Below, in pieces: positions 137 to 30,653 of a DNA stretch of 64,000 nucleotides. The position numbers and the translations under genes were made by a program. This DNA comes from Schmidtea polychroa. Taxonomy: Eukaryota. The stretch covers positions 138,384,001-138,448,000 of the forward strand of contig CM097885.1 of NCBI GenBank assembly GCA_044892525.1. Direction: 5' to 3'. The notes under the pieces were generated by a model. That model saw only the letters and a list, made by a program, of their open reading frames with translations, made no database searches and had not been told where the DNA came from. Numbering within the stretch: the first letter of the stretch is position 1; each line of letters starts with the position of its first letter.

Positions 137-1142
137 TGTTAGGGATAGGCCCCTGGCCTTAAATTATTTTAGAATCAGTTTTTTTTATTTTTATTAAAAG
201 GGATTAACTTTGTTTGGACACGCGAGAAATAATAGTTGTAGCAGCTTGCAGAAAAGGAGTGATTAGCAACAGTCAAAGAGAATTATAATTACCTGAGATA
301 GATTAAGCGAAACAATCAGCGTGGAATTATATTTTAGTTATTCAAGAGGAAATAAAAATCTGTTGTTTGAAAACAGCTGGTGTAGATTGACATTGAAATC
401 CCGAATTGGAGAAATTCTAGAAGTAGTTTCAAGTAACCAGGAAAACCAATATTGAAGCACAGCTGTTGTTTGAAGAGGAAATTTAGATATAAATTGTCGA
501 GCGGATTTCACAGACAAGAAAAAAAGAGAAAGTAGGAAGGAGAAAATATTAGAAGCGAATTAATATTGGAAAAAGCCTTGAGAAGTGAAATTGCCGGAGC
601 AGAAGAAATTAGACAGATTTGAAAAATCTAGAGAAGAATTTTTAGGAACCGAGAATATTTAAAAGTAAAGTTTAATTTAATTTAATTTAATTAAATATAA
701 GGGTGGGCGAGGATAAATTAGTATCCTGTGAAATAGTTATAAATAAAGCGAACACAAAGTATTGTTCTTTTACTTTAGTGTTCCCTGGGAGCCCCAAAAT
801 CATTCCCTCTTGCTTGCCCAACTCTTTTAGTCATATTGCGATTGTTGTGCTACATAGGAGCCAACAATTTCTTGCAGACTGTTGACAACAGTAGGGATCA
901 AAGAATCCGTTTTCTTGTACTCTTTGTACATATATTATAAAGTTCATTTGTAAATTATAAAATACATTTTTATAAAAAGAGAAAGGAGTTTTGTTTTTTC
1001 TTATTCAGTGATTTAAACTTAGACGCGCAACCACATTAAATATAACTTATTTATATTTATTTTTTATTTATTTATTTATCTTAATTGAATTATTGGAGTC
1101 ATTTGTGTTAAGATCTGTAGTCCCCGTTTTTCGATCTTAACA
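137..1142 (+). repeat. 5' LTR (1,006 bp)
   Basis: TGTTAGGG...TCTTAACA. Identical to the 3' LTR at offset 14076 apart from two mismatches found by eye (T533/A14609, C889/A14965). Confidence 0.97.
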
Positions 1143-1145
1143 TTT

Positions 1146-1163
1146 TGGTGAGCCCGACGTGAT
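1146..1163 (+). promoter_or_regulatory. Primer binding site, tRNA-Trp
   Basis: TGGTGAGCCCGACGTGAT, 3 nt after the LTR. 17/18 match to the known tRNA-Trp PBS TGGTGACCCCGACGTGAT. Confidence 0.9.
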
Positions 1164-1257
1164 CTAATTTACGGGGGGAATAAGAATTTTATTTATAAAC
1201 GACAAACATCTTTTTGAATCATTGAGTTAAGAAATAGGAGAGTAATAAATTTTAGAC

Positions 1258-1266
1258 CAGGTAATA
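1258..1266 (+). promoter_or_regulatory. Putative splice donor in the element leader (CAG|GTAATA)
   Basis: Consensus donor 20 nt upstream of the gag ATG. Could pair with the acceptor at 11958. Not confirmed by transcripts. Confidence 0.5.
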
Positions 1267-1280
1267 GAAACCAGCAAATA

Positions 1281-2306
1281 ATGGCAGAAATAAATAATTT
1301 ACAAAATCTAAATGAGAATAATTTACATAATAATGTGCCACTAATTCAACCACCAGCGGTAGATTTTATGAGATACCCAACAATTCCGATTAAACCATTT
1401 AGCGGAAACCCAGGGGAGTTTCCAGAATTTATGTCCGAATATTTTCAGTTAGCCAGAGCATTAGGATTTCCGGAACCGGTAATGATTTTGAGATTACCTT
1501 TATATTTAAAAGGGATGGCGCGGGAAATATATAACGATGTTATAATAGCCGAGCATCCAGTTGAATGGAATGTATTACGATTAGCGTTACAAAACAGAAT
1601 ATTACCGGGGGATGCAACTAGAGTGTTGAGACAACAGTTTTATAACAGGCGACAAAATTCGGGTGAGCATGTTGGGGAATTTTCATATCAAATAATGATG
1701 TTGGCAGAGAGAGCATTTGGCAATAGGGCAGCCTGGAATGATGCAACTAGAGCATTAGTAAAAGATCAGTTTTGGTCAGGGTTATCGTCAGCAATGAGAA
1801 ATGCACTCAGTTTACACATAGGAGATAATTTAGAGGAATTAACGCGCAAAGCGTGTTTAATTGAAAGTAGCATTGAGAAGTCAAATAATTTTGCAATCAG
1901 TAGCAATAAGTCAGACATTGAGTGTTTTAATTGTCATAAAAAGGGACACATGTCAAAAGATTGTAAAAGTAGGAATAATTCTCCAGGGGACAAATTGTGT
2001 ACCAAGTGTGGGAGAAATAATCATGTGGCATCAAACTGTAGAATTTCGGACCTAAATTGTGAGAAATGCAAGCGCAAGGGACATGTAGCGTCAGTTTGTA
2101 AAGCTAGTTTTGGGGGGAATAATTCAAATAATAGCAATAATAGAAATAGAAGCCCCGATAGGAATTTTCGAAGTAATAGTAATAACAATAACTTTCAGAG
2201 TAGAAATAATAATTTTAATAATAATATAAAAAGGGATGAAGTAAATTCGGGGGGTAAAATTAAATGTCATAAGTGTGGAAAATTTGGTCATATTATGCGT
2301 TCTTGT
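1281..2306 (+). other. gag: Gag domain with four CX2CX4HX4C zinc knuckles
   Basis: PIKPFSG...F..F..Y capsid-like start. Knuckles at 1923-1964, 1998-2039, 2058-2099 and 2265-2306. Confidence 0.92.
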
Positions 2307-5300
2307 CCACAAAATCAGTTATCTAATAACAATGGTAGTAGTAATGGTAATAATCGATCGAAGCAGACAACGTTTGCAGTGAATTCAGACAACAAATTAA
2401 CGTATTTGCAGCAGCTTGAATTAGAAATTCAAGGAGAGAAAAACAGGTTAGCAAGGCTAACAACAAAGGAAACCGATGGGTATGATGAAAATGAAGCTGT
2501 TTATATGATGTCAGCCAGAAAAAGGCGAAATAAAAATAATTATGTAGAACTTGAAGTGTTGATGCTTCAAGAAAGTCCACAGGAGGACAAAGAGGAAAAG
2601 ACTATGGTCATAGAACCAGAGGTCTGTGAGGGTTTACAGATTTCACCCAGGAAAAATCTAGTGGCTATGGCCATGGAGCCAGAAGCCAACAGAGAAATAG
2701 AAGGTTTACCGGTTTCACCAGTTAAAAATCGTAAGGCTATGGACATGGATCCAGCAGCTAAAGTAATTGTTCCAACAGAAGTTTTGGAAAAAAGATGGGC
2801 TTCGGTCAGTGAACCGGAAGTTCTTATAGCCACATCATCCATGCGAGGTGAGTGTGGTAGTGAACCAATAAAGGTTAGAGAAGCATCGAAAGAGGAAAGA
2901 AATCCCATCGATGACTGTAGAAAAGTATTATTACGCAAGAGCGTATGGCAAAGAGAAATGAGACAGAAATTAGAAAATATTCGTTTAAACCCCGTTAATG
3001 AGAATGAGGTTGACAAAGTAATGGATATCATATCAGAGTTAGACAGAAACGAGGAATATTATCCAGAATTGAGAGAAATTCTGAGAAATATTGGCCTAAA
3101 TTGGAAACAAAGAGAGAATCTGGAAGATTCTACAATTTTTGTATCTTTCCAAAAGGGTTGTTTTCGTAGATATACAATAAACCCAAGTGAAAAGGTAGAA
3201 GCATTGGCAAAGAGAGTTTCTGTGGTAAAACCTCAATTGAGATGCAAACTATATTTATTGGGAGAAAGGTTATTAGAGGGAGAAACCCTGTTAGATTGTG
3301 GTATACTACCAGGGAAACATATGGTTATAAAAGCAAAGTTTCACAAGGAAACTGTTACAGTAGTGGACTTGGATAATGTCCTTACAATAAGCGAGATTGA
3401 AATTGATCAATTAAATCAAATATCAGCCGTACCACATAGGTTGGGAATCGAGCTGATGAAAAACCCAAGAGATGGGGAGGCCATTAAGATGATAATGGAT
3501 TGGATACTGGAGTTGCGAATCCCAGTAGATACTCTTAGAGAGATAATGCCATTGGTGGTGCCTTTAGTAAAAGAGACATCACAATTTCAGACACAAGCAA
3601 AGATGCTGTTGATTAAAAATGGACATGCTATCAGACAATCGGAAGGTAGACAAGGTCCAGTGATGTTAGATATCAGGATACCCAGGAGAGGACACCTGAT
3701 ACAACAATTCTCATGTTATCATAGAGTAAAGAAACTGAGAAAAAGGATATCAGAAATAGTAAAAGAATCATTCCTAATAATGATACATGGTTGTCAGGTG
3801 GATGACGACGAATTTCTAGTAGATGTGGGATGTTTTCCCCAAGAGGAAACAATAGTAATGATATTGTTTATAGAGTTTCCAAAGGATCAGTGGGCAACTT
3901 TGAGATTGCCGGATAATGCAGAAATTGAGGAGGAGACAGTTCCTCTCGAGCAGAAACAAGTAGATGATGATACTCATCTAGAGACAGCAAAGACTGTAGA
4001 TCTCGATGAAGAGATAAATAGATATTTAAAGGAACTCGACAACACAGAGGATGAGTTGATCGAGATATTTCCACCAGAAGAAGATAAAATCATACAACTA
4101 AACCAGAATGAGACAAACATTGGAGCAAGTACCTCGAAATTATTGGAGCTACCAAGGGATAGGGTGGGCCCGAAGTTGGTCGAAAATAGGAGAAAGAAGG
4201 AGAGGAGAGGGAGACCGAGGAAGAGTCAAATGAACCCGTCTCCAAGAGAACTCCTAAGGCCAGTAACTATGCAAAATGTTACCAGACAGGCATTAGCCGG
4301 AATAGCTAGCCAAATAGATAAAAGCGTGGGAGACGCCAGTAGTAAAACAGAAACATGGAGGAAATTAAATCAGATATTACGATTGATTAAGCCTGAATGG
4401 CAAATCAAGAAAGATAAAGATATAAACGTTGAGAAAATCACTGAAAAGATAAAGAAAACAATGGGAAAGATCCCAGGAAATACCACGGAACAAGAAATGT
4501 GCGAAGTGGCAGAACAATTCCTAAATGAAGGAATGACGAAAGGGAAAATGATAACGATTTTAGCCTTAATGTTTAAAAATGCCTTAATGATACTTAAGGA
4601 TGATCAGTCAGGAATTCAAGCAGCCTTAGATAGGTTGACTAATATAATAGAAGTGAATTTCGGAACATGGATGACCGAACACAAGTTTTTGGAGATAAAA
4701 GAGACAAAAGGAAAATATGAGTTAAATGAGGAATTACTAACGGAAAACATTTCGAGTAATCCACGGGGAACAGGTGGATTTACCAGTTGGATGATGATGT
4801 TGTTAGTAATGATGGGAATATTGAGACAGACAAATTCCTTAACGGCATATGATTGTAGTGAACCAATACTATCACGAATATACTCATTAGTAGACACAGT
4901 GGAATGCAAGGAAGCATATCCAGACAAAGTGGCTAAAAGGGAAGATGTAGAATTTTACGTTTATCAACAAACAGAATTTTACCGAACAAGGATAAGGGAA
5001 TGTCGAATACAGAGAGCGACATTTGAATACTATTGTGGATCAAATAGTTATTCAGCATTTTTAGGAGCCAAACTTATTCCCGTACCCTTGATAATCCCAC
5101 CAGAGGATTGTGTAAATGCTTTTCGATCAAAGACGGTCAAAATAGATGATGAAGTGACAATTACTGCTGAAGAGGGAAAGAAATTGGGTATAACTATTAC
5201 CCGGGGAGGACCAATAGCAGATGATGGTTCTTGTCAGGATAGAAAGAAACTACGAGGTTCTAATGTAGTAAGCTATGTGGTAACAGTTGAGGATTACACA

Positions 5301-8177
5301 GTAGAGCTGATCGAGTACGAAGGAACTTTTGAAGTTTCTACGGGGAAAATGATGTCGCATCCAGAATGTAATGCAAAGTTTGGTTATTGTAAAACCAGTT
5401 TAGCAGTATTGACTTATCAATCAATGAGAGATTTTTGTGATTTGGGATACTTGAAAAAGGTAGTATTTTCAAGGCTTGATGGGAAAAGCTTTACGTCTCA
5501 AGACACGAAACAGAGTGGTTGGGGAGACAAGATGGCTCACAAAACGAAAAAAGAGGAAGTAGCAGAGAAAAACACAGCGGTAGTGTTAGTCTCAAAGGAT
5601 CCAACAGACGCAATACGATTAGTCAGAAAGAAACAGACCACAAAGTGTGGAGTATTAACATTTGAAACAAATTATAAAGGAATATATTTAACACACAAAT
5701 ATGTTCCAGCAGCTGAATCGTTACATTTATCAGATATCAAGATAACCAAGTATATCAATAACAAGATTGACTTTCTGTATCATGACTTACAGAAGCAACT
5801 GTTAGATGTATACCAGGAAGTGATCCTGAATGATTGTCGTTTGAACAGAGAAATAATACGTAACAGGTTAGCAATATCGATAGCTAATCCAGATTTAGTA
5901 ATGCCAATGTTAACGGAGGAAGGAACATTTGGTAGAATATTGGGAGAAGCAATCTACAGTTATCAATGTAAAGCAGTAGAGGTAGAAGTCACCAGATATG
6001 ATCAATGTACTGTAGAGCTTCCGGTAAGATATGAAGGAAAACTGAGATTTATGATGCCGGTATCGCATCAGTTATTAAAGGAGGATACATCACCGTTAAA
6101 AACAGTTTGCAATCCAGCAATGTCACCATTGTACAAGATTAACAATATATGGATTTCATTACCAGATAGAAAACCACCTTCGAAACCAGTAGAAGTACTC
6201 CAAGCTACAAAACTGGAAACTAAAATGGAGTTTAGACCATTGAATGAAATGTCAAAAGGTGGAGTATACACTCCAGAGGAGATTGAAGAAGCTCGGAGAG
6301 CAATTGTATTTCCCCAAATCAGAGATAGGGGAGTAACAGAGATAATAACTAGAATCTATCAGTCATATGATGGTAAACCAGATTACAATTTATTATTTGG
6401 GCCGGAACACTACAAACAAGCTGCATCAAATGTGATACGGAAAATCTGGGGTAGATTTACAAGTTTTGGAATATTTGTAGCAGGATGTTCAGGGATATAC
6501 GCAATAATAATGATATTGAAAATAATCATATCACAATTATTTTCCACGTATAGTATCTTCAAGATCGGAGGGTGGTCTTGGAAGTTGCTATTAGGAATGT
6601 GTCCAGTTTGTGCAGACTTTGCAGTATTTCATCATCATAATAAAGAGATTAAGAGAATGAAGAGACAAACTATTAAGAAGCATGAGTTAATAATGTACGA
6701 ACCTAGTCATCGAGACGATGACAATTCTGACGAGGGAGGTAACCTAGAGGGCTACGAGACCTCAGATAACACATCAACAAATCCAGACAACAAAAAACCG
6801 AAATTTAAAAATTTTGAAAATAGAACTTATCAACAGCACCCTGTTAAAGATAAAAATCGGAAAGGACTAAAATGGCCGGTGAAATATTTATCACCTTACA
6901 CAACCAGGAAAAAGATAATATCGGAACAAGTAGAGGAGGAAATGATAAAGCGGCTTGATTTTAGAACAAGTATAGATATAGCAACACCCTTGCCATATCC
7001 GAAATATAATATGAAATTTGAAACAATGCCAGCAATCGGCACATCAGCCATAGAAATGATACCAAGATACCCATTTAGTACGCTGGAGCGTCTAAAGGAA
7101 AATTACCAAGAAGAGACAAAATCGGAAGATGATAAAGACAGCGAGAATCAACAGAAATTTAGAGATAATATCCGAGGAATTTCAACAATATTTATGGTGA
7201 ATATTGGGAAAAAGACTAATAAGCCTACAATTAAATTAAAGGTAAACAGGCATACAGTACATGCCATCATCGACTCAGGATCAGATTTAACACTGATCGA
7301 AGCGAATCTATTAAATGAAAAAGAACTACAAGCAATAGTACCAACATTAACGGGAGCAACTGGAGCAAACGGACAGCCGATCAATGTTATCGGAACATTA
7401 GAGTGTGAATTACGGCTGTGCGACCAGAAATTTAGACACGATATCAAAGTCACAAGAAAATGTATGGCTGAATGTATCGTGGGAATGGATATATTGAAAA
7501 AATTAAAAGATATTGTCTTCGATTGTGCAACAGGTGAATTAGTAAAAATGACGAGTAGAAAACGAAAAACCTACAGTGTGGATGTAGTGTTTCTAGATAG
7601 AACGGTAACCATACCACCAAGAACCGAGACAGTTTGTTTTGTAGCCACACACCAAGAGGTGGAGGGAGATGTTATTTTCGAACCTAGTGAGCAGTTCGTG
7701 AATAGATATAAAACGCCCATGGTGCAAAACTTGGCAACAGTACGGGGAGGAAGAATTCCCATTCGATTAACAAATTTAGCAAGCAAGTCATTGAAACTGT
7801 ACCCAGAAACGAGAGTAGGTAAAATAATGCAACTTGCAAATGTACCCAAAGAAAGTGAGACGATACTATCAGTGCAAGAGGATGAACGAGATCCAGATAT
7901 TGAATATTATGATGCACCAAGTTGTGATAGTAAAGCATTAACTAGAAAAGAGAACATCAGAGTTAATCAGTTGTTACGTAAATATGACCAAGTTTTTGCA
8001 AAACACGAATATGATTTAGGGCAAGTTAATATCTTAGAGCATGAAATTAAATTAACAGAAAATAAACCGATAAAAATACGCCCGTACAGAATACCTCAAA
8101 GTATACAAGGGTCCGTGGATAAACAAATTAAATTAATGCAAAAATATAATATAATTAGACCAAGTAAATCTCCATAG
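1281..8177 (+). CDS. Polyprotein part 1: Gag - accessory domains - Env - protease - start of RT (2,298 aa; ends at a TAG inside the RT motif)
   Basis: Single ORF with a gag capsid-like N-terminus, 4 CCHC knuckles, glycoprotein, IIDSGS protease motif (Asp at 7272) and RT start KQIKLMQKYNIIRPSKSP*. Confidence 0.93.
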   Translation: MAEINNLQNLNENNLHNNVPLIQPPAVDFMRYPTIPIKPFSGNPGEFPEFMSEYFQLARALGFPEPVMILRLPLYLKGMAREIYNDVIIAEHPVEWNVLRLALQNRILPGDATRVLRQQFYNRRQNSGEHVGEFSYQIMMLAERAFGNRAAWNDATRALVKDQFWSGLSSAMRNALSLHIGDNLEELTRKACLIESSIEKSNNFAISSNKSDIECFNCHKKGHMSKDCKSRNNSPGDKLCTKCGRNNHVASNCRISDLNCEKCKRKGHVASVCKASFGGNNSNNSNNRNRSPDRNFRSNSNNNNFQSRNNNFNNNIKRDEVNSGGKIKCHKCGKFGHIMRSCPQNQLSNNNGSSNGNNRSKQTTFAVNSDNKLTYLQQLELEIQGEKNRLARLTTKETDGYDENEAVYMMSARKRRNKNNYVELEVLMLQESPQEDKEEKTMVIEPEVCEGLQISPRKNLVAMAMEPEANREIEGLPVSPVKNRKAMDMDPAAKVIVPTEVLEKRWASVSEPEVLIATSSMRGECGSEPIKVREASKEERNPIDDCRKVLLRKSVWQREMRQKLENIRLNPVNENEVDKVMDIISELDRNEEYYPELREILRNIGLNWKQRENLEDSTIFVSFQKGCFRRYTINPSEKVEALAKRVSVVKPQLRCKLYLLGERLLEGETLLDCGILPGKHMVIKAKFHKETVTVVDLDNVLTISEIEIDQLNQISAVPHRLGIELMKNPRDGEAIKMIMDWILELRIPVDTLREIMPLVVPLVKETSQFQTQAKMLLIKNGHAIRQSEGRQGPVMLDIRIPRRGHLIQQFSCYHRVKKLRKRISEIVKESFLIMIHGCQVDDDEFLVDVGCFPQEETIVMILFIEFPKDQWATLRLPDNAEIEEETVPLEQKQVDDDTHLETAKTVDLDEEINRYLKELDNTEDELIEIFPPEEDKIIQLNQNETNIGASTSKLLELPRDRVGPKLVENRRKKERRGRPRKSQMNPSPRELLRPVTMQNVTRQALAGIASQIDKSVGDASSKTETWRKLNQILRLIKPEWQIKKDKDINVEKITEKIKKTMGKIPGNTTEQEMCEVAEQFLNEGMTKGKMITILALMFKNALMILKDDQSGIQAALDRLTNIIEVNFGTWMTEHKFLEIKETKGKYELNEELLTENISSNPRGTGGFTSWMMMLLVMMGILRQTNSLTAYDCSEPILSRIYSLVDTVECKEAYPDKVAKREDVEFYVYQQTEFYRTRIRECRIQRATFEYYCGSNSYSAFLGAKLIPVPLIIPPEDCVNAFRSKTVKIDDEVTITAEEGKKLGITITRGGPIADDGSCQDRKKLRGSNVVSYVVTVEDYTVELIEYEGTFEVSTGKMMSHPECNAKFGYCKTSLAVLTYQSMRDFCDLGYLKKVVFSRLDGKSFTSQDTKQSGWGDKMAHKTKKEEVAEKNTAVVLVSKDPTDAIRLVRKKQTTKCGVLTFETNYKGIYLTHKYVPAAESLHLSDIKITKYINNKIDFLYHDLQKQLLDVYQEVILNDCRLNREIIRNRLAISIANPDLVMPMLTEEGTFGRILGEAIYSYQCKAVEVEVTRYDQCTVELPVRYEGKLRFMMPVSHQLLKEDTSPLKTVCNPAMSPLYKINNIWISLPDRKPPSKPVEVLQATKLETKMEFRPLNEMSKGGVYTPEEIEEARRAIVFPQIRDRGVTEIITRIYQSYDGKPDYNLLFGPEHYKQAASNVIRKIWGRFTSFGIFVAGCSGIYAIIMILKIIISQLFSTYSIFKIGGWSWKLLLGMCPVCADFAVFHHHNKEIKRMKRQTIKKHELIMYEPSHRDDDNSDEGGNLEGYETSDNTSTNPDNKKPKFKNFENRTYQQHPVKDKNRKGLKWPVKYLSPYTTRKKIISEQVEEEMIKRLDFRTSIDIATPLPYPKYNMKFETMPAIGTSAIEMIPRYPFSTLERLKENYQEETKSEDDKDSENQQKFRDNIRGISTIFMVNIGKKTNKPTIKLKVNRHTVHAIIDSGSDLTLIEANLLNEKELQAIVPTLTGATGANGQPINVIGTLECELRLCDQKFRHDIKVTRKCMAECIVGMDILKKLKDIVFDCATGELVKMTSRKRKTYSVDVVFLDRTVTIPPRTETVCFVATHQEVEGDVIFEPSEQFVNRYKTPMVQNLATVRGGRIPIRLTNLASKSLKLYPETRVGKIMQLANVPKESETILSVQEDERDPDIEYYDAPSCDSKALTRKENIRVNQLLRKYDQVFAKHEYDLGQVNILEHEIKLTENKPIKIRPYRIPQSIQGSVDKQIKLMQKYNIIRPSKSP
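3132..3344 (+). other. Ubiquitin-like domain 1 (no C-terminal diGly)
   Basis: TIFVSFQKG...INPSEKVE...P...KLYLLGERLLEGETLLDCGI aligns with ubiquitin IFV..LTG...VEPSDTIE...P...[20 protein letters not shown]. Confidence 0.72.
3660..3869 (+). other. Ubiquitin-like domain 2 (more divergent)
   Basis: V..LRKRISE...LIMIHGCQVDDDEFLVDVG follows the beta-grasp pattern V..Lk.kI...l...G..l.Dd..L.D.g. Confidence 0.5.
4266..4690 (+). other. Bcl-2-like helical domain
   Basis: EVAEQFLNEGMTKGKMITILAL resembles BH1 ([22 protein letters not shown]). NFGTWMTEH resembles BH2 (HLEPWIQEN). BH1-BH2 spacing matches Bak/Bcl-xL. Confidence 0.55.
4788..6630 (+). other. env: Envelope glycoprotein, chuvirus-G / herpes gB-like (class III fusogen), embedded in the polyprotein
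   Basis: Internal signal peptide WMMMLLVMMGILRQTNS, then LTAYDC. 14 ectodomain Cys. Motif RNRLA...NP...G.FG...GEA.Y..QC..V.V...C..ELPV. TM helix about 6465-6535. Confidence 0.82.
7230..7830 (+). other. Aspartic protease followed by a dUTPase-like beta domain
   Basis: HAIIDSGSDLTLI...CIVGMDIL, then VTIPPRTE...IPIRLTN...LYPETRVG, typical of the Gypsy PR-RT linker. Confidence 0.85.
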
Positions 8178-8186
8178 TCCTCACCT

Positions 8187-10484
8187 TTGGTGGTTGTAGC
8201 TAAAAGAGACGGCTCAGTTAGATTATGTAATGACTATAGGAAATTAAATGAACAGACAGTAAGTGACAATCACCCGCTAACTTTGTTAGATTACATTTAT
8301 GATAAAATGAAAAATTCAAAGTTGTTTACTGTGATGGATGCACAGAAAGGTTTTTATCAAATAAAGATGAGCGAAGACTCAATTCCTATGACAGGATTTT
8401 CTACAAGTAGTGATCATTTCGAATACTTAGTAATGCCGTTTGGATTAAAAGGAGCCCCTCCAACTTTTCAGAGGGCAATGAATATCATGTTGATGGATGC
8501 ACATCACGCAATGGTATATATAGACGATATTATCATCTTCTCGGAAGATTTAGATAAACATTTGGAACATCTTGAAGACATTTTCAAACGATTAATCATG
8601 GCAAACTTAAAAGTTAAACCAAGCAAATGTAAATGGGCAGAATCGGAAGTGATTTACGTGGGGCATGTAATATCACACGATTGCGTAAGACCAGATCCGG
8701 CTAACACGGATAAAGTAAAGAATTTCCCACAACCAGTGAATGTGAAACAAATCAAAGGATTTTTAGGGTTGACGGGATACTATCGGAAATTTATACGAAA
8801 TTTTTCAGCAATTGCTTTTCCTCTAACTACATTAGAAAAGAAAGGTATAAAATTTTTATGGGGAGAAGACCAGCAACAGGCATTTGATAAGTTAAAAGAT
8901 GCACTATGCAAACCACCAATTCTACGATTTCCAGATTTTAAAAGACAATTCATGGTGATGACCGATGCATGCACAAGAGGCATAGGTGCAGTTTTGGGAC
9001 AGAAAGACGAAATTGGCGATGAATACGCAGTAGCATATGCAAGTCGTGGATTGAAGCCACACGAAAAAAGTTATGCTGTAATAGAATTGGAAGCATTAGC
9101 ATTAGTATTTGCAGTGGAAAAATTTAGTCATTATCTATGGGGCAGAAAGGTAATTTTCTATACGGATCATAGACCACTACAATGGTTATTGAAACACAGA
9201 GATGAAGCGTCAAAATTAGTAAGATGGGCATTGAGATTGCAGCCCTATAATATTGAAATAGTATACCGAAAAGGTAAAGCCAATGGTAACGCTGATGCAT
9301 TATCAAGAATGGAACAGGAACCGGAAGCGGAAGATATAAAAGAAGGAAGATTAGAAGGAACTATATTTATGTTGACAAGGGAAGCAAACACCTTGATCGA
9401 CTTGGTAGAGGCACAGAAAAGTGATGACGAAATTAATATGATCAGACAAGCTATAGAAGCCAAAGCCATACCAAGCGAGTTTCAGAAATATTGGGAGAAA
9501 CATAAAGATAAATTCATATTAGACGAAGGTTTGATCAAATATGTAGAGGCAAAAGATAACGTTATATTAGTGCCAAAGAAATATAGAGAACCCTTATTGT
9601 TACAATACCATGATGGAGCACTGGGAGGGCATCTCTCAGCAAGACATACATTGTCTAGATTAAAAATGAAGTATTTTTGGCCAGATATGAAAGATGATGT
9701 CAAGAAATGGTGCCAAACATGCAAGATATGTGTAACCAGGAGGAACACAGGCAGGAAACCTCATGTTCCGTTAAAACCAATGCCAGTACCGTCCTCGCCA
9801 ATGGAGATGACCGCTATGGACGTACTAAGGCCATTTAAAGAATCAAATATGGGAAATAAATTCATAATTGTGTTCTGTGACTACTTAACCAAGTGGCCAG
9901 AAGCATTTCCAATACCGAATCATAAGGCAGATACAATCGCCAGAATTTTTGTCGAGCAAATTGTATTCAGATATGGTGTTCCAACAAAATTACTAACTGA
10001 CAGAGGAAAAGATTTCATGAGTAATTTATTAAAAAGTGTCAATGATTATTTCGGCATATTAAAACTGAACACTTCACCCTATCACCCTCAAACCGATGGT
10101 TTAGTGGAAAGGTTCAATGGAACCTTGGCTAACATGTTATCATCATATGTGAACTCAGGGCAGACGGATTGGGATGTACATATACCGTCCTGTTTGTTCG
10201 CATACAGAAATGCAGTTCACTCAGTCACAGGAGAAACACCATTTTACCTGATGTATTTAAGGCATAGCAAGATGCCAGTAGATCTTTTATTTTATCCTAA
10301 AGCTTCACAAAATTGTGATGAAGGAAATTACCTATTTGAGATGAGAGAAAGGATGCAAGAAGCCTGGGAGAAGGCAGGTTTAAACATTCGTTACAAGCAA
10401 GAGACAATGAAGGAGTATCATGATCGTAAAGCGAAAGATCATGGGTTCTTAGTAGGCGACTATGTAATGCTAGAAGGACATTAA
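8187..10484 (+). CDS. pol: Pol: reverse transcriptase, RNase H, integrase (in frame with the upstream ORF; flanked by premature stops)
   Basis: RLCNDYRKLN, MPFGLKGAP, YIDD; RNase H TDAC/ELE/TDH/DALSR; HHCC zinc finger; DDE core (AMD, LTDRG, VERFN). Same frame as 1281. Confidence 0.96.
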   Translation: MVVVAKRDGSVRLCNDYRKLNEQTVSDNHPLTLLDYIYDKMKNSKLFTVMDAQKGFYQIKMSEDSIPMTGFSTSSDHFEYLVMPFGLKGAPPTFQRAMNIMLMDAHHAMVYIDDIIIFSEDLDKHLEHLEDIFKRLIMANLKVKPSKCKWAESEVIYVGHVISHDCVRPDPANTDKVKNFPQPVNVKQIKGFLGLTGYYRKFIRNFSAIAFPLTTLEKKGIKFLWGEDQQQAFDKLKDALCKPPILRFPDFKRQFMVMTDACTRGIGAVLGQKDEIGDEYAVAYASRGLKPHEKSYAVIELEALALVFAVEKFSHYLWGRKVIFYTDHRPLQWLLKHRDEASKLVRWALRLQPYNIEIVYRKGKANGNADALSRMEQEPEAEDIKEGRLEGTIFMLTREANTLIDLVEAQKSDDEINMIRQAIEAKAIPSEFQKYWEKHKDKFILDEGLIKYVEAKDNVILVPKKYREPLLLQYHDGALGGHLSARHTLSRLKMKYFWPDMKDDVKKWCQTCKICVTRRNTGRKPHVPLKPMPVPSSPMEMTAMDVLRPFKESNMGNKFIIVFCDYLTKWPEAFPIPNHKADTIARIFVEQIVFRYGVPTKLLTDRGKDFMSNLLKSVNDYFGILKLNTSPYHPQTDGLVERFNGTLANMLSSYVNSGQTDWDVHIPSCLFAYRNAVHSVTGETPFYLMYLRHSKMPVDLLFYPKASQNCDEGNYLFEMRERMQEAWEKAGLNIRYKQETMKEYHDRKAKDHGFLVGDYVMLEGH

Positions 10485-10496
10485 AACAAAAAGGGA

Positions 10497-11759
10497 TTGT
10501 CTCCGAAGTTGATGAGAAATTATAAAGGCCCATATCAAATAATGAAGGTCACGGAAACAAACTTGATTTTACAGTTAGTGTCAAACAAGAAAGCGGAACC
10601 CATTATGGTTCACGTAAACAGATGTAAAAAGATAGCTCCACCAGAAAAGGAGAAGCCAAAATCAGAAATAGAAGAATTCGAAATTAATAAGAAATCGAAA
10701 AAGAAAACGTTGGAATCATACAAAAGTATCCTAAAGGGACAACCAGAGAGGTATCCTTTAAGATCCCGACAGATTCCGAAAACTGTAACATTTTTGTCAA
10801 TAATCAGTTGTGTTATGATGATAGGACAAGCATTTGAATTGTTTGATCCAGAAGCTAGTCATCACCCGGATATAGAATACCGGAGAACGGATAGATCATT
10901 CAGATTTTATTTGACAAATCCGCAATGGCACAGATATGATTTATATCTGACAACTCCAGAAAGAGGAGTATCTTTCCATCTAAATCTATGGGATCGAGTG
11001 AAGATAATAGATGGATTATTACCAAATACCAGTTATCTCCTAGAAATTAAGACATATATGTCAGATCCAAACGTGTTCGCAAATGGAGGAGATTGCGATG
11101 ACAAAGCAGAATGGATCGTGAGAACAGCGGTATTTAAGGAAAAAGTGGAAATTACGTATCAGAACCAGACAGTTAAATTCCATCATTTATATTGGAGGAA
11201 AAGTAACACATTTTCTGAACATGATTGGAGAATAAATAATCGAATAGCGCTCCTATACATATTAGAAAATAATAAAACAGTAAAGCAGTTAGTACTCAAC
11301 CAAGCTTATCAACGGAGGAGCTGGACAGTTAAACAAAATATCGAAACGATAGCCAATATAACGTATATGGAATTCACAGAGGAAACAGGCTGGTATACGG
11401 TGTATCATGAGATGATAAAATTAACACCTCCAGCAATAAAGGAAGTAGCTAACCGACGATGGGAGGCTAGATTAGTAAATATCCCGGGTTGTAGAGGAAT
11501 AAATACAATGGATTGGACGAATTTTCAAAGGGTAGCGAGTGAAAAACGTTCACGTGAAAATAAAATAATTAAAAATTGTTCATGTCAGACTGAACTTAAG
11601 GGAAATTCAGGAGATAAAATGCCAAATTGGCTAATCATAACTATTGTAGGGGGAGTAATAATTATGATATTGAGTTTAATAATAGCTACCTTGTGGATGT
11701 TTAAATTAATAATGAGGGACATAAGGTATTGGGAAAATATTTACGAGACCGAGGTTTAG
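10497..11759 (+). CDS. Integrase GPY/F tail plus signal peptide and FN3-like type I membrane glycoprotein
   Basis: LSPKL...YKGPYQI (GPY/F). Signal-like TVTFLSIISCVMMIGQA (10782-10832). FN3 signature IIDGLLPNTSYLLEIKT (11004-11054). Five N-glycan sequons. TM WLIITIVGGVIIMILSLIIATLWMF (11628-11702). Same frame as 1281. Confidence 0.75.
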   Translation: MSPKLMRNYKGPYQIMKVTETNLILQLVSNKKAEPIMVHVNRCKKIAPPEKEKPKSEIEEFEINKKSKKKTLESYKSILKGQPERYPLRSRQIPKTVTFLSIISCVMMIGQAFELFDPEASHHPDIEYRRTDRSFRFYLTNPQWHRYDLYLTTPERGVSFHLNLWDRVKIIDGLLPNTSYLLEIKTYMSDPNVFANGGDCDDKAEWIVRTAVFKEKVEITYQNQTVKFHHLYWRKSNTFSEHDWRINNRIALLYILENNKTVKQLVLNQAYQRRSWTVKQNIETIANITYMEFTEETGWYTVYHEMIKLTPPAIKEVANRRWEARLVNIPGCRGINTMDWTNFQRVASEKRSRENKIIKNCSCQTELKGNSGDKMPNWLIITIVGGVIIMILSLIIATLWMFKLIMRDIRYWENIYETEV

Positions 11760-11946
11760 GGGGAAAAAGTCTCACCAACAAACTAGGCAATGTAAATATA
11801 TAGTTATCTATTTAATAAACCTTATTTATAGTAATGTATTAAAAGTGTGAGCTCAACTGAGCAAAGGTAAAATCAGACATCAGCGTATGTCGACCTTGTG
11901 TACCCTGGGAGGGTCTATCACGAAAGTGATAAAAGCTATTAATTAA

Positions 11947-11958
11947 TTTTATTTTCAG
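11947..11958 (+). promoter_or_regulatory. Putative splice acceptor immediately before the ORF3 ATG
   Basis: TTTTATTTTCAG|CA ATG: polypyrimidine tract plus CAG, 2 nt before the start codon. Confidence 0.6.
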
Positions 11959-11960
11959 CA

Positions 11961-13979
11961 ATGGATCAGAACAGAATGACAAAAGCCCCAATCAAAGCAA
12001 ACAGACGACTTCAAATGGCAAAATACAATTCCCTATGTCCAACAGATATGGAGGTATACAGTACCTTCAAGGAGGAATACGTATACCGGTTCATAGGAAC
12101 CACGGTAGAAACGAAGATGAATCATTTCACTTCGAATAATTGGTATTATCCTAGGAGAGTGGATATCCCAAACGATTATAAATTCCCAGGTGGACCTCAC
12201 AGACAAATGATGATAACGGTTGTAAGCAACCAAGGGAGAATAAAGTTAGGAGATTTATGCAGAGAATATGGATCATGCCCAAGGAGAGAGAACATTTGGA
12301 TTCACGCTATAAATAGGCCAATCACGGTGTTCATGGCAGGTATGGACCTACCCGTGGAATTGGATAAATATAGTACGTTGGAAATATACCATTCAGATGG
12401 ACGTGAAAAGAACATTCAAGTTCAAGCAGCAGCAATAAATTCAATAATAGCGGTGGAAATATTGGAGTTTAGGAAACAACACCCTATTGTGAGTCGAAAT
12501 GAGCCGACATGGATTTATAATGTCAACGAAGCCGACATACAACAGTGCAAGTCGTTCGTAAGAAAATACCTAACAAAAATCGAGGAGGATGAGGCCACAG
12601 TTTTTGTATCAGCAAGATTTGCAAAATCCAGGATGGAGTTAAAAGAAACACTAATCCAAATTGCGATAGTGGATATGAGAGGCAACAATTTATTGAGTGC
12701 GGTAGTGACTCCCAAGGACCCAGTTAAACACTACCAGACGCACCAATATAAACTGAAGGAACCAGAAATCAGAGGAAATTTGGATAAAGACGATTGCCAC
12801 CACCTTATTAGGAAAATTTGTGACAAGAAAATTATAGTTGGAATTTTAATAAAAGATTTAGTTTCGGTAGCCAATCTACCAGTGCAACGATTGTTAGGAA
12901 TCAGAGACTTATCAGCAAATAAGTTGTTAGAATCCAGAGGAGTCCCCAAGATACATGGTCATTATAAATTGGGATTCCTAACAAAGACGTTTTTGCGTAC
13001 GGTTCCCGGAGAACCAAGGAATTTAGTTGTAACAAACGAGGCACTTGCGATCCGAGCGGTTTACCTACAAATCCGAAATGAATGGGTAGATCATATCAGC
13101 ATGCCTCAGGAAGATTACATGTCAGCAACCCGGGCGGAAGCGGTTGACTTAGAAATATTGCAGAAACGAAGACTACCCGAACAACCTTCTACATCAGAAC
13201 AGCCCCAGGCAAAGAAAAGGGGTAGGTCACCAGCAGATTTACCACCACCTCCAACAGTGTCGATAGGAGAAGAAGAATATGAAACATGCGTAAGTGAAGC
13301 TGAATTAACAAGTCCACTCAAACCATCTACTAGTGTCGCAAAGAAATCACAGAAAAAGTCAGAAGTTAAAAGTGCAAAGGAAACCCCAGAGGTAGGCACA
13401 GTCAAAAAGATATTAAAAAAAATAATACCTGGCAAATGCGATAAATCGAAATTGAAATTGAAAAAGGTTGCCAAACAACCAGGGGAGAAGATAGAAATAC
13501 CATCCAGCAAGGATGAAGTAAACAAAGCAGAGCCCAGGAAATTATTTACGGAACCCGATGATGACTTAATGGAAATTGAATTCCAACCTCCAACCAAGGA
13601 ATTGCAAGAGAAAATTAAAATCAAATCAGAACCCGAAGTACGAAAGAAAATGTTAAAGCTAACAAAAGAAAATGTCATAAAGAAGCCAGTATCAGTAGAC
13701 GTAGATGGATTTGATCCTATGTGGTATAAACGTCCTGACAGGAATTGGAAGCCTAGAGCCAAAGAATATAATGGCCAACCCATCACGAGGATGGCGATAA
13801 ATAACAATCAACAATATGATGAGTTTGACGTAGATGGGATACCTTATGTGATATCTACAGTCATACTAACATGCGCCCTGGATGATAAAGCCCTGGCTGT
13901 GAGTTTCGAGCCAGAGGTATTGAAGGAGGTACATCTATACAAAGTTCCTGAACCAGATCCCGACGATCTGGATGTCTGA
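11961..13979 (+). CDS. Element ORF3 (672 aa): unknown N-domain, ISG20/REXO4-like DEDDh exonuclease fold (apparently inactive), Lys/Glu/Pro-rich tail
   Basis: 12597-13064: IQIAIVDMRGNNLLSAVVTPKDPVKHYQT, KIIVG...KDL, IRDLS, YKLGFL, EALAIRAVY track the REXO4/ISG20 pattern, but ExoI DxE reads SAR. NLS-like AKKRGRSP. Confidence 0.75.
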   Translation: MDQNRMTKAPIKANRRLQMAKYNSLCPTDMEVYSTFKEEYVYRFIGTTVETKMNHFTSNNWYYPRRVDIPNDYKFPGGPHRQMMITVVSNQGRIKLGDLCREYGSCPRRENIWIHAINRPITVFMAGMDLPVELDKYSTLEIYHSDGREKNIQVQAAAINSIIAVEILEFRKQHPIVSRNEPTWIYNVNEADIQQCKSFVRKYLTKIEEDEATVFVSARFAKSRMELKETLIQIAIVDMRGNNLLSAVVTPKDPVKHYQTHQYKLKEPEIRGNLDKDDCHHLIRKICDKKIIVGILIKDLVSVANLPVQRLLGIRDLSANKLLESRGVPKIHGHYKLGFLTKTFLRTVPGEPRNLVVTNEALAIRAVYLQIRNEWVDHISMPQEDYMSATRAEAVDLEILQKRRLPEQPSTSEQPQAKKRGRSPADLPPPPTVSIGEEEYETCVSEAELTSPLKPSTSVAKKSQKKSEVKSAKETPEVGTVKKILKKIIPGKCDKSKLKLKKVAKQPGEKIEIPSSKDEVNKAEPRKLFTEPDDDLMEIEFQPPTKELQEKIKIKSEPEVRKKMLKLTKENVIKKPVSVDVDGFDPMWYKRPDRNWKPRAKEYNGQPITRMAINNNQQYDEFDVDGIPYVISTVILTCALDDKALAVSFEPEVLKEVHLYKVPEPDPDDLDV

Positions 13980-14199
13980 CCGAAGGAAATTGCCAGAAGC
14001 CGTTCAATTGAGTGTAAATACGAACTTATCTATATGTGTTTTATGGGACATGGACATTACTTTGTGATTCTGTCATTTATTATTTTGGGAATATGTGTTT
14101 ATATTTTGTTTTATGATTTATGGTAATTTTTATGTAATACTGTTGTCTGCAGTTCTCGAAAAATAATTTTATATCTTGTTTTCGGGACGAAAATCTTTT

Positions 14200-14210
14200 A
14201 GGGGGTAAGA
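14200..14210 (+). promoter_or_regulatory. Polypurine tract
   Basis: AGGGGGTAAGA, 2 nt upstream of the 3' LTR. Confidence 0.75.
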
Positions 14211-14212
14211 CT

Positions 14213-15218
14213 TGTTAGGGATAGGCCCCTGGCCTTAAATTATTTTAGAATCAGTTTTTTTTATTTTTATTAAAAGGGATTAACTTTGTTTGGACACGCG
14301 AGAAATAATAGTTGTAGCAGCTTGCAGAAAAGGAGTGATTAGCAACAGTCAAAGAGAATTATAATTACCTGAGATAGATTAAGCGAAACAATCAGCGTGG
14401 AATTATATTTTAGTTATTCAAGAGGAAATAAAAATCTGTTGTTTGAAAACAGCTGGTGTAGATTGACATTGAAATCCCGAATTGGAGAAATTCTAGAAGT
14501 AGTTTCAAGTAACCAGGAAAACCAATATTGAAGCACAGCTGTTGTTTGAAGAGGAAATTTAGATATAAATTGTCGAGCGGATTTCACAGACAAGAAAAAA
14601 AGAGAAAGAAGGAAGGAGAAAATATTAGAAGCGAATTAATATTGGAAAAAGCCTTGAGAAGTGAAATTGCCGGAGCAGAAGAAATTAGACAGATTTGAAA
14701 AATCTAGAGAAGAATTTTTAGGAACCGAGAATATTTAAAAGTAAAGTTTAATTTAATTTAATTTAATTAAATATAAGGGTGGGCGAGGATAAATTAGTAT
14801 CCTGTGAAATAGTTATAAATAAAGCGAACACAAAGTATTGTTCTTTTACTTTAGTGTTCCCTGGGAGCCCCAAAATCATTCCCTCTTGCTTGCCCAACTC
14901 TTTTAGTCATATTGCGATTGTTGTGCTACATAGGAGCCAACAATTTCTTGCAGACTGTTGACAAAAGTAGGGATCAAAGAATCCGTTTTCTTGTACTCTT
15001 TGTACATATATTATAAAGTTCATTTGTAAATTATAAAATACATTTTTATAAAAAGAGAAAGGAGTTTTGTTTTTTCTTATTCAGTGATTTAAACTTAGAC
15101 GCGCAACCACATTAAATATAACTTATTTATATTTATTTTTTATTTATTTATTTATCTTAATTGAATTATTGGAGTCATTTGTGTTAAGATCTGTAGTCCC
15201 CGTTTTTCGATCTTAACA
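14213..15218 (+). repeat. 3' LTR (1,006 bp)
   Basis: Near-identical to 137-1142; followed by TSD AATT. Confidence 0.97.
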
Positions 15219-15843: not shown

Positions 15844-16932
15844 TTATATGTCAGCTGACTCGTCAAATTGCAAAGCAAACCAATCACATATTTCAAAGTA
15901 ATTTTTTAGTTGAGTTTGCATGTCTGTTGAAATTGCATGTATTCTTCTTATAACCGTATTGCCTGACAACTGTAAATCTTGTATTGCTGACATAATTGCA
16001 GGCTTGTTGAAAAGTCCCTCAAATAAGCACTCAGCGCCAGCAAGAAATGCTTCTTTTATCAGCTCACCGTATTGGTATGGTTTTTTCTTCTTTGCGAGCA
16101 TGTGGGAAATTTTAAAAGAAGCAATGGTGGCATTTTTAGATTTTACCAAATGTCGAGTGAAAATCGATTACTGGCCAGATAAATTTAATTTAAGGTCTCT
16201 AATTTTGTTCTTTCTAAATTCTGATTTAACTGGATAATTAGTATCAAAAGTGCTATGGTAAGAATAGAAGTGTCGTTCAACATTATGTTTTTTTACCACT
16301 GCGACTGTACTACCGCACAATAAACAAACACATTTATCTTTAATACTGACAAAACAATAGGATTCATGCCAATCTGTGCTAAAATTATACGTTCGTTGTC
16401 TTTTACTTGAACTCATTTTAGAATTAAAATTTTTTTTCACTTTTGACTTTATAACCTTTCAACTGAATGATCAGAGAAATAATAAATTACAAGTTGATAC
16501 CTAAATTTAATCTAATTTAAAAACAATAAACAATTATTGGTCTTGCAAGTGTACAGCAAAATAACAAATTTAAAATCAAAAAAGAGGCGAGTACCATTAT
16601 GAAAACAAAAGATTAATAATAAATATATAAACACAAATTACAAATAAACCACATTTTTGGATGAAAGAGTTTACCATAAAATTAATTTAATGGTTTTTAA
16701 GGATAGAGAATTTTTTAACCATATTTTTATAAACAACGAGGAAAGAAAAATTATAAAAATATGCTTATTATTATCTTAAAATTTCGAAATCTGTCGATTT
16801 TAATTTTTTTTTAATTAAAAAATTCTCTCGAATTTCAAAATACTTTTGCTTTATTTACTTTTTTTCTGGTAGCACACATAAAACTGCTGCCTGGCGCCAT
16901 GGCGCCCGCGGACACAGGGTTGGCGACCACTG
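15844..16932 (-). mobile_element. 5' fragment of a hAT (Buster/SPIN, GTF2IRD2-like) DNA transposon; transposase pseudogene
   Basis: BED-like CLLC...HF...H, then KPY..GELIKE...FALQFDES, with an in-frame TAA at 16170-16168. Terminus CAGTGGTCGCCAAC at 16932, flanked by CTCTATAG (nnnTAnnn). Other end not found. Confidence 0.85.
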
Positions 16933-28200: not shown

Positions 28201-30653
28201 CATAATACTACAGGCCCAATGAAAATCGTAGACGATGACATATTCGTTAAGCCAGCCCGAAGCTCCACAAAACCTGGGAATGGAAATCATTTTTAAATAA
28301 AGGAAAAATAATAAACTGAATAATGATTCTGACAGAAGGAAAGAATTACTACCAAATGGTGAAGAGTAATTCCCTTTAAGACAGATTATGACTTAATAAA
28401 ACAACAGCAAGAAAGCGAAGAACAAATAAATACCCTATTTATACGAAATGAATCATCGAACAGTATTCAAACAGTTTTGAACAATTGTAAATGAACGAAT
28501 ATTTGAAATTCCTTGCATTCTATTTTTGTCCCTCGATCAATCAATAACTGGTATAATAAACAGCTTTGTTCAACACTTTTTAATATAGCACAAAAGCAAC
28601 TATTTAATGCGGTGAAGAGAAGTCATAAGGAAGGCATTATCGTTCACTAAAAAACTGAATACGAATGATAAATAATGTTCCTTCAGAAATAACATGATTC
28701 AAGATTAGAGAATATAAAAATATATCAAGTTTACAATTTAACCTCAAACTATTATAAAAATGCCAACTTTTGAACTCTAGGATATCTAAAAATTTTTAAT
28801 TATTTGACAAAATAAATTACATTTGTGCTATGGTGAAAAAAACTGTTAAATTTATATGAAATTATGTAAAGATTAATCAGAATAATTTAATTTAGTGGGA
28901 TAAAGGTTAGAATGAAGAAATTATGAAGAATTTTGTGATGGGATGGACGTAAATCAATGAAAAATAGATTAAATAGACTAAGGAATCGAGTATTTCTAAG
29001 TCTAGAGCAATCGTCGGGGAAATTATGCATGGACAATACTTGGGAGAGAACGAAGCACTAATAATCCGTTTCATTGAGTTAAAAATGCTGAGAGAAAAAT
29101 AGGGAAAGTAGTTGAAATGAAAAAAGCTAGAAAAGGACATTAAAGAAATTATAGAAAGAGATAAAAATTCAAATGTTCAAATTTATACAACAAATAAAAG
29201 TAAAATTACCATGAAAATATTTCATTTAAAGCGAAATAGACAAATGGCAGAAAGGAGGTTGATCCTATTTGGAAGATGTGCAAGAGGGGAAATTAGAAAT
29301 AGTACTCTAAATTAATTGCGAACAATGAAACAAAAATGTATACTAGAGAAATTTATTATTACCTCATTTCCTTATAAAAGAGGGTAAACACTAAAATAAG
29401 TCGTTTTGACGCACCAGCAAAAATATAATGGAGATACTTGAACAACAATATCGAAGCTAATCCCAAGTTGCATAATAATTTATTCAGTATTCGAATTCGC
29501 TTTATAAAGAACAAAGTCACCATTGTTTGTGATATTGCTGAGATGTTCTTACAAATAGGAATAGTTAAGAATGAGAAGCCAAAAACTAACATATCAAGCC
29601 AAAAGCTGATGTAAATCCAAAGGGGATGCTTTTCTGTGCAATGATGAGGTCCAGGTTTAATGATAGTTTATGGTAAATTAAATTCGTCCGACCCTAGATT
29701 TTCTTATGAATATATTTTAATTATCGGTTTGTTTTCAAAATTACTTGATTTAACAAAAGTTTTAGGTGTTATATTTATCCAAATTCCATTGAAAATTAAA
29801 CGAATCATCGATTTTATTGAAAATATATCCAAACGAATTCTTGTTGAGAAATTTCAATGTTGAAATACTATTTTTTTAAACAAAATATATCACAATTTTA
29901 CTTTATCGCAAAAATGATACATTTTCCATAATATTTTATAACTATATTTAAGATAAAATATACTAATACCACACTGCAACAAATCAGTGATTTTTAATTC
30001 CAACTACAGAGTATGGTAATTTTAAACAACAAACTAATTCTTTAGGAGAAATATAAATTTACATTAATTTTTAAAAAATATAAGAGTTTTGACAAATTTT
30101 GTCCCAGTTAAATAAATAAAAAAATATTAATCAAATTTTTATTAAATCGATAAAATGCAGAAACATAATGTAAAATTATATAGATCTTACTTTTTGAGGA
30201 ACTGTATGGGCGTGCCTGTTGCTTACTGTTAAAAGGTGATGCAAATCCAATTAATTTTCCAACATCACTGACATGCGTGTGTAGAGCTGTGACACTACAG
30301 GGATAATAATCCATGATGAAAACAGTTGCTTATTAAAAATAGATTTTTAACGATTGGTAAAAATCATGGAATTATCGACTTACAATTGTCCTCAAATGCC
30401 TCAGTAACGAAAACATGATTAATTGAAATCAATCCTGGGTGTTTTAATTTACGAAATCTATCTAGCAATTGAGAGTCTTTGGCTGATTGCAAAATAGAAC
30501 CTGGGAAGCGACGAAATAAGACAAACTGATCTGTTCCTGTATCAAAAGCTTTATAGCAAATTGAGGGCCGATTAAACGTTCTTGATTTGCGAATTTCATA
30601 AATTGATTCAATAGGTGTGATATCCGTGTATTGTAAAATTGTATCGGGCGTTT
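19222..30653 (-). CDS. PAN3: PAN3 (PAN2-PAN3 deadenylase subunit): pseudokinase, coiled coil and C-terminal knob; 8 exons
   Basis: Exons 30653-30384, 30328-30191, 26926-26779, 26734-26632, 21190-20927, 19654-19590, 19542-19404, 19365-19222 (TAA). All GT-AG with consistent phases. Motifs CYKAFD...FRRF, DYYP, IIDPSKILI, ELECGRLFRL, WS...YQLKLFRDFVFHQVD..GAP.LDLAHI..LNKLDAG. Confidence 0.9.
19965..20135. mobile_element. Short DINE-1/Helentron-like or other non-autonomous repeat remnant
   Basis: GC-richer block ending ACATACAAACATAC...GAAGTTAATA, resembling HINE/DINE-type ends. Family not established. Confidence 0.35.
22847..23171. mobile_element. 325-bp hAT MITE
   Basis: TIRs CAGGGCTTCTTAAACT / AGTTAAAGAAGCCCTG (15/16). 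Perfect 8-bp TSD ATTTAGAC. Subterminal GGGGTCGC repeats. Confidence 0.93.
24150..25184 (+). mobile_element. 3' fragment of a hAT transposon (ZMYM1/Tip100-like), decayed
   Basis: FSEIYTAF...TVASVERSFSKLKIIK...NSIGQSRL..L.LLAIEH dimerisation domain. Terminus-like TAGCTACGCTACT at 25171-25183. Confidence 0.85.
25690..25975 (+). pseudogene. Merlin (ISXO2/IS1016-like) transposase N-terminal remnant
   Basis: WQFRICRKTKSIRIRSFFHDTKLPLKMLVKFIY...ELSINKNTAV matches the W.C..C...SIR..SFF...KL pattern. Confidence 0.6.
29395..29580 (+). pseudogene. BEL/Pao LTR retrotransposon RT remnant
   Basis: FDA.AKY...PKLHNNLFSIRIRF...VTIVCDIAEMFLQI matches Pao VFDA...GP.LQ.DL..VL.RFR...A...DI..MF.Q, with frameshifts. 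Confidence 0.75.

Follow-up and report, generated by a model that had tools for sequence, protein, structure and literature searches.

A double pseudo-enzyme of oxygenase and ISG20-like exonuclease folds encoded by a Burro-like planarian Ty3/gypsy element

Nuclease capture by retroelements, AlkB capture and the retention of dead viral dioxygenases are each already known. Elements with the order GAG-ENV-POL have been described from flatworms, nematodes and bryozoans, nine listed flatworm elements being about 12-18 kb long (available part of PMC13524379), and the planarian Burro/GYPSM1 elements, which exceed 30 kb, carry a Gag with three CCHC knuckles, ubiquitin-like (Ubl) and BCL2 domains, and an env in frame between gag and protease (available part of PMC6431247). 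In the 64-kb window analysed here (the whole stretch of DNA examined), a single LTR element spans 137-15218. At 15.1 kb it is shorter than Burro/GYPSM1 and similar in size to the listed flatworm elements, and it has the same Gag-Ubl-BCL2-env-pol order (the Ubl and Bcl-2 matches being weak, at E about 0.003), with no MATH, BIR, ankyrin or dUTPase match in Pfam. Its last gene is an accessory ORF whose product joins an oxygenase fold to an ISG20-like exonuclease fold. The available parts of PMC6431247 and PMC13524379 mention no 3' exonuclease or oxygenase ORF for Burro/GYPSM1 or for GAG-ENV-POL elements, and we found no description of such a fusion in a retroelement in the literature, a search that left Repbase aside, so that an earlier description is possible. 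The fusion, and the split of its family into active and dead forms, thus appear to be undescribed.

The 15.1-kb element is a young gag-env-pol Ty3/gypsy element laid out like planarian Burro, as seen from its paired LTRs, its target duplication, the order PR-RT-RH-IN and the position of env between gag and pol; all of its features lie on the plus strand. AATT stands directly before the 5' LTR (137..1142; TG...CA, 1006 bp) and directly after the 3' LTR (14213..15218), as the two copies of a 4-bp target-site duplication. With 2 mismatches between the LTRs over 1007 aligned bases (99.8% identity) and AATT on both flanks, the insertion is young. A primer-binding-site-like sequence (1146..1163), which begins with TGG 3 nt past the LTR and which we take to resemble the 3' end of tRNA-Trp, and a purine-rich tract ahead of the 3' LTR (14200..14211) border the internal region. 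The flanks of the element are mostly 24-33% G+C.

One frame (1281..8177) runs from Gag, with its 3 CCHC knuckles, through a ubiquitin-like domain, a Bcl-2-like domain, a fusion glycoprotein of the gB-type/Monjiviricetes kind and a protease into the start of RT (Pfam: zf-CCHC, E 1.2e-11; PF24664, the fusion glycoprotein, 1.8e-79; RVP, 4.6e-8), where it is closed by a premature stop inside pol (8175-8177). The ubiquitin-like match (3135..3317; PF00240, E 0.0036) and the Bcl-2-like match (4422..4682; PF00452, E 0.0034, profile positions 14-97 of 100), both weak and below cut-off, are placed between gag and env. A stretch near 3660-3900 resembles the weak ubiquitin-like match and has no profile match itself, and a helical stretch lies near 2946-3100. 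RT, RNase H and integrase follow in the same frame (8178..10484) between two premature stops (8175 and 10482), and pol is therefore broken in this copy. That these stops are present despite the 99.8% LTR identity could mean that the copy was defective at insertion or quickly mutated, or that they are assembly errors. The integrase tail (10485..11759 together with what follows it) then continues in frame through a signal-like hydrophobic segment (~10785) into a membrane-anchored protein of ~330 aa (TM ~11634), a second surface protein besides env, for which Pfam gave no match.

Elsewhere in the window, a host actin-family gene with few large exons (53916-57396, minus strand; PF00022) looks Arp2-like by eye, and two related env-less gypsy copies (46803-50479, plus strand, and about 59817-63476, minus strand), with terminal repeats of ~150 bp, lie in opposite orientation, are mostly 90-96% alike and are both decayed. 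Two exon-like ORFs on the minus strand (30364-30660, without a Pfam match, and 36392-36817) resemble the PAN3 pseudokinase by eye. Remnants of DNA transposons (15844-16458, minus; 39248-39619, plus; 51170-52467, plus; 58273-58536, minus) are hAT-like by eye and include a PIF1 helicase piece (PF05970, E 1.7e-21) that suggests a Helitron.

The accessory ORF (11961..13979, plus strand) encodes 672 aa from its first ATG, comprising a pseudo-oxygenase, a pseudo-exonuclease and a charged tail; shuffling this DNA 2000 times gave longest open runs of 77 codons on average and 164 at most. As a sequence-only reading of this DNA had proposed, it is carried by a retroelement, since it sits between the two LTRs. 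A host gene trapped between elements is ruled out by the matched LTRs and target duplication that enclose it. A splice-acceptor-like signal (T-rich tract plus CAG; 11944..11958) is one of 5 acceptor-like sites of this kind among the 497 YAG of the element's internal region, and because it ends 2 nt before the ATG, we infer that the accessory protein would be made from a spliced or trans-spliced subgenomic RNA by way of this acceptor. Downstream of the two folded domains (13107..13976) are a charged Pro/Lys-rich region, a basic KKRGR motif (aa 418-422) and a C-terminal segment of ~100 aa. A shared C-terminal motif spotted by eye was not significant (4.7 bits, against 5.2 for the best shuffle), and the domain profile identified no second copy of the exonuclease-fold domain in the six frames of the window. 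When aa 20-385 were predicted as a homodimer, the score was 0.00, in a run in which the alignment was not used and the fold was uncertain, so that it speaks neither for nor against a dimer.

The same reading had placed an ISG20/REXO4-like exonuclease domain at 12597..13064 (aa 213-368). The domain is indeed there, and the family profile and predicted structure extend it slightly, to aa ~198-382 (12552..13106, plus strand). The accessory ORF alone has no PF00929 match in Pfam, and the domain alone has no phmmer match to PDB sequences at E<=10, so its resemblance to exonucleases is detectable only through relatives. A word-indexed search with aa 1-400 likewise yielded 0 of 2861 candidates. Using phmmer with aa 1-390, we obtained 62 proteins at E<=0.001 among 1.84 billion (18-38% identity), of which 20 match PF00929, 17 of them above the curated cut-off. 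A profile of 54 sequences matched ISG20L2 (7yw5, E=5e-29), ISG20 (1wlj, 7.7e-16) and SDN1 (5z9x, 9.7e-13), and the AF2 model (pLDDT 91) superimposed on ISG20L2 with Z 17.9 (rmsd 2.6, 158 aligned) and on ISG20 with Z 17.2 (rmsd 3.2, 161 aligned). When the profile was built from the 23 intact members only, the query scored 112.4 bits, the best shuffle reaching 5.6 (421 of 500 shuffles reported). The fold is DnaQ-like and closest to ISG20/ISG20L2, as had been suggested from the letters. Since these best matches are DEDDh enzymes, a DEDDy/RNase D origin, as in rotifers, is ruled out.

The five catalytic positions hold S217, R219, L300, L355 and E360. Both ExoI acids, Asp and Glu, are missing (S217, R219), and translation and alignment confirm the earlier observation that ExoI reads VFVSARF and that the ExoIII His is absent. 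At ExoII the acidic residue is replaced by L300 in the aligned column, with an Asp one residue earlier, and at ExoIII both the His and the Asp are gone (L355, E360). Judged from DEDDh chemistry, two-metal nuclease activity would be impossible once the His and the two ExoI acids are lost. With a net charge of +10 and a pI of 9.6, the query domain is basic.

Ahead of it lies a second domain, absent from the sequence-only reading (aa ~26-174; 12036..12482, plus strand). When folded alone, it gave a model (pLDDT 89) with a double-stranded beta-helix and an N-terminal extension, whose best 12 matches among 48,161 chains are 2OG oxygenases of the AlkB/prolyl-hydroxylase kind (Z 9.2-10.5, 133-140 aligned); structural matches include ALKBH6 (Z 10.5, rmsd 4.4, 140 aligned) and a viral P4H (Z 10.1), and Z values for AlkB and prolyl hydroxylases are within 1 of each other. 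The list of viral matches is headed by viral 2OG oxygenases and by plant RNA virus polyproteins, which we take to carry an AlkB domain. Because HHalign gave no significant match of this N-domain to AlkB, whether to the E. coli protein or to an alignment of 8 AlkB sequences, we assign the 2OG-Fe(II) oxygenase fold from structure. An ESM Atlas search with aa 40-200 gave no lead, all scores being under 0.8. Active 2OG enzymes are defined by an HxD/E...H triad (available part of PMC9289625). In the family, 0 of 44 members have both parts of an HxD/E...H triad, in windows set from strand order rather than by residue-level superposition; HxE occurs in the strand-II window in 1 of 44 and a His in the strand-VII window in 8 of 44. 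Other residues are well conserved: P70 (44/44), N71 (38/44), H115 (38/44), E166 (34/44) and R81 (26/44). In leave-one-out tests scored by single-sequence E-values, the weakest at 8.9 bits, the N-domain was found ahead of all 41 nuclease-fold domains that are preceded by at least 100 aa, whether active or dead (in the other 7 of the 48, the upstream part was too short). Because the nuclease site is destroyed and the iron triad absent, this copy is a double pseudo-enzyme; its intact relatives would probably consist of a dead barrel joined to an active nuclease. Found in both active and dead members, the N-domain may carry the selected function.

Could either fold still be active through a rearranged site, built for example from D299/E360 (nuclease fold) or H115/E166/D98 (barrel)? 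Maelstrom offers a precedent, having switched its catalytic residues (available part of PMC7968707). Here, E360 is a conservative replacement at the ExoIII position, where 9 of 24 dead members have Glu, D299 lies one residue from ExoII, in a column with Asp or Glu in 12 of 24 dead members, and the barrel conserves H115 and E166. Yet the nuclease site has lost its two ExoI acids as well as the His, the dead members share no conserved tetrad in its place, and HxD/E together with a distal His is present in 0 of 44 barrels, leaving such cryptic activity improbable.

We scored 48 near-complete domains, comprising the query, 44 of the 62 phmmer hits and 3 further proteins; the 18 hits covering <85% of aa 195-382 were dropped before residues were counted. 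Catalytic state proved bimodal in the 47 relatives, with all five residues present in 23, 0-2 in 23 and three in 1. The four domains nearest to the query (29-32% identity) are all dead and carry different residues at their catalytic sites, and an active domain comes next at 28%. Dead members are 13-63% identical (median 23%), and many are still full-length. These data bear on the simplest alternative, that a formerly active nuclease in this copy is mutating neutrally. The two premature stops in pol and the intact relatives would fit such decay, but LTRs that are still 99.8% identical mean too short a time for four or five targeted changes, the nearest relatives have likewise lost the site, and 672 codons remain open. 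On these grounds we reject decay of this copy as extremely improbable: the dead state is shared, as expected of long-term retention, and the finding of intact relatives that was to speak for decay holds for 23 of 47 but not for the nearest four. The open frame itself, which had been read as a sign of selection, is intact, but with near-identical LTRs it says little about selection in this copy; the evidence for selection on the accessory ORF is from the family.

Among the relatives, P0015 has a very long acidic repeat tail (1113 aa), and P0059, joined to duplicated biotin-carboxylase sequence, looks chimeric. Scanning prokaryotic genomes confirmed none of the pattern matches (0 of 27 and 0 of 86), and a search for fused forms of 1198-3420 aa gave 0 of 2816, which is weak evidence. 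The family may be element-borne, as this one copy is.

In the exonuclease-domain tree (47 rows, built without P0011 and without the five catalytic columns; no outgroup, long branches), catalytic state changes 2 times, a number as low in 0 of 500 shuffles. The query is a long branch of unsure place there, outside every starred group, and its path to an active member is as short as that to a dead one. In a tree of the N-domain only (39 rows, likewise with long branches and no outgroup), the query groups with four other dead members in a starred clade (95/89); the best tree has 6 state changes and the bootstrap trees 5-6, of which starred branches force only 1. Catalysis was thus lost long ago and across the lineage, probably on more than one occasion.

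Dead domains still hold part of the active pattern: 34 positions are conserved in >=75% of active members, and half of these, 17, also persist in >=60% of dead ones. The retained residues, which include P251, R/K252, D275, G294, G313, R315, D316, W375 and D377, look like the fold core. The H263/G264 loop is found in 18 and 23 of 23 active members, respectively, as opposed to 13 and 13 of 24 dead ones, and median pairwise identity of the exonuclease domain is 0.23 in dead and 0.34 in active members, compared with 0.17 for the N-domain in both. The dead fold is therefore maintained under weaker constraint, its core kept and its substrate loop not, and with this loop partly lost there is no clear sign that the former substrate groove survives. 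The shift in charge (median +4 vs 0) is about that expected from the loss of catalytic acids. ExoII has Glu (the DEED variant) in 12 of 23 intact members. In the column of query L296, four residues before the ExoII acid, an extra Asp is invariant in intact members (23/23) and mostly lost in dead ones (3/24), so it behaves like a sixth active-site residue.

The sequence-only reading had inferred an RNA-binding decoy or a suppressor of host RNA defence; given this weaker constraint, an RNA decoy is not favoured over a scaffold. The selected function could instead lie in the pseudo-oxygenase barrel or the tail, through protein-protein binding as in dead poxvirus dioxygenases, with the nuclease fold of dead lineages serving as structural support only. 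Divergence of the N-domain is equal in the active and dead groups, whereas the exonuclease domain is relaxed in the dead one, and the N-domain keeps H115 and E166; the residues retained in dead exonuclease domains resemble a fold core; and for close dead pairs the two domains show about the same conservation (exonuclease/N-domain identities of 0.61/0.62, 0.63/0.63 and 0.51/0.45). In distant dead pairs, however, the exonuclease domain is still the more conserved of the two (0.23 vs 0.17), and no full-length relative without a nuclease fold is evident among the 62 hits, fragments not being judgeable. On balance we regard this explanation as unlikely, if well worth considering.

Because both enzyme folds lack catalytic residues, the accessory protein probably works by binding RNA or host proteins, not by cutting. 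The reading we prefer, tentatively and at somewhat less than even confidence, is that it is a non-catalytic binding protein that benefits the element by acting on RNA surveillance or silencing in the host. Its ancestor would have been an active 3'-5' exonuclease with a dead oxygenase barrel as a module for recognising substrates or partners; in several lineages cutting would have become dispensable while binding was kept, and the two-domain unit would now occupy, but not process, an RNA end, an RNP or a host factor involved in RNA decay or in silencing by small RNAs. Several observations point this way: exonuclease and oxygenase folds are both present, catalytic state is bimodal (23/23/1 of 47), the query clusters with four dead members in the N-domain tree, many diverged dead members are full-length, half of the positions conserved in active members (17/34) persist in dead ones, the N-domain is present in 41/41, and the domain is basic. 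The element also carries Bcl-2-like and ubiquitin-like domains, the host-manipulation set of Burro (available part of PMC6431247). Precedents exist for both halves, in DEDDh proteins that act by catalysis-independent binding of nucleic acid (available part of PMC10123124) and in poxviruses that keep dead dioxygenases (available part of 10.1101/2022.11.22.517515). Against this host-directed binder stand the reduced constraint on dead exonuclease domains (0.23 vs 0.34) with erosion of the H263/G264 loop, a charge shift that about equals the loss of catalytic acids, and an exonuclease tree that leaves the query on a long branch, outside starred groups and equally close to an active member; in addition, known anti-silencing factors of transposable elements are few and narrow (review, available part of PMC6719617).

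Binding might instead be directed at the element's own RNA (3'-end protection, export, translation or packaging), active relatives trimming the ends of element RNA or cDNA and dead ones holding them. In favour of such a cis-acting role, 3'-end processing has been proposed for the DEDDy ORF3 of rotifer Juno/Vesta elements (available part of PMC5408684). Both folds, moreover, have nucleic-acid-binding relatives, and the domain and tail are basic. But such a gene is missing from most gypsy elements, which replicate all the same, the domain profile matches neither of the two env-less gypsy copies in the window, and a step needed for replication would not easily lose catalysis more than once. We judge this explanation rather unlikely, yet plausible enough to be kept in view beside a binder of host RNA defence.

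A more specific and more speculative scheme, which we think doubtful, would have animal retrovirus-like elements carry two captured RNA-enzyme folds, an AlkB-like barrel that reads modified RNA (m6A, methylated small-RNA ends) and an ISG20L2-like domain that engages 3' ends; active members would destroy or trim host defence RNAs, and dead ones, arisen several times, would sequester them. If this were true, the elements would encode an antagonist of piRNA or m6A surveillance in animals, and natural active/dead pairs would be available for comparison. The accessory ORF provides a concrete candidate for the counter-defence factors of LTR elements in animals, of which few examples are known (available part of PMC6719617), and the planarian host would make the question testable by RNAi.

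When compared with known systems, the exonuclease-fold domain has the fold and motif order of ISG20/ISG20L2, which belong to the REXO4-like cluster of PF00929 DEDDh exonucleases (cluster F.5 in the available part of PMC3985635) and provide its best profile and structure matches; it differs from them in that four of the five catalytic residues are replaced and the fifth is Glu, in an identity of only 16-20%, and in being retroelement-borne and fused behind an oxygenase-fold domain. The pseudo-nucleases Exuperantia, Maelstrom and EXD1, for which RNA binding has been shown (cited in the available part of PMC5408684), also have a DEDD fold without a canonical site, and Exuperantia is matched at Z 10.4; these are host genes, however, and are structurally farther from the domain than ISG20/ISG20L2. 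The DEDDy ORF3 of bdelloid Juno/Vesta LTR elements and of Athena/Terminons (available part of PMC5408684) is likewise a DEDD-family exonuclease in a 3' accessory ORF, and the DEED variant occurs in the Juno/Vesta/Athena context as it does here. Those proteins are RNase D-like DEDDy, with their catalytic residues intact, whereas the protein described here is an ISG20L2-like DEDDh in a two-domain fusion, dead in half of its family. For the N-domain, the AlkB (ALKBH5-like) ORF of Phalaenopsis Ty3/Gypsy (available part of PMC9289625) also places a 2OG-oxygenase fold in an extra gypsy ORF, but that protein keeps HxD...H and RxxxxxR and demethylates m6A, whereas the N-domain lacks the triad, has no detectable sequence similarity to AlkB and is not assignable to AlkB over prolyl hydroxylase. 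The inactivated poxvirus dioxygenases C10L, C4L, A37R, F11L and A51R provide another case in which a mobile element keeps the barrel without its iron ligands, and vaccinia C16 is among the fold matches of the N-domain (Z 8.1); poxviruses are DNA viruses, a nuclease fusion is not described for these proteins in the available part of 10.1101/2022.11.22.517515, and there is no sign of a direct relationship to the N-domain. In the cases compared, the captured nuclease and AlkB domains of other retroelements are intact, whereas here both folds are dead, and the family, with about equal numbers of active and dead nucleases behind the same dead barrel, offers a natural series for the change from enzyme to binding protein.
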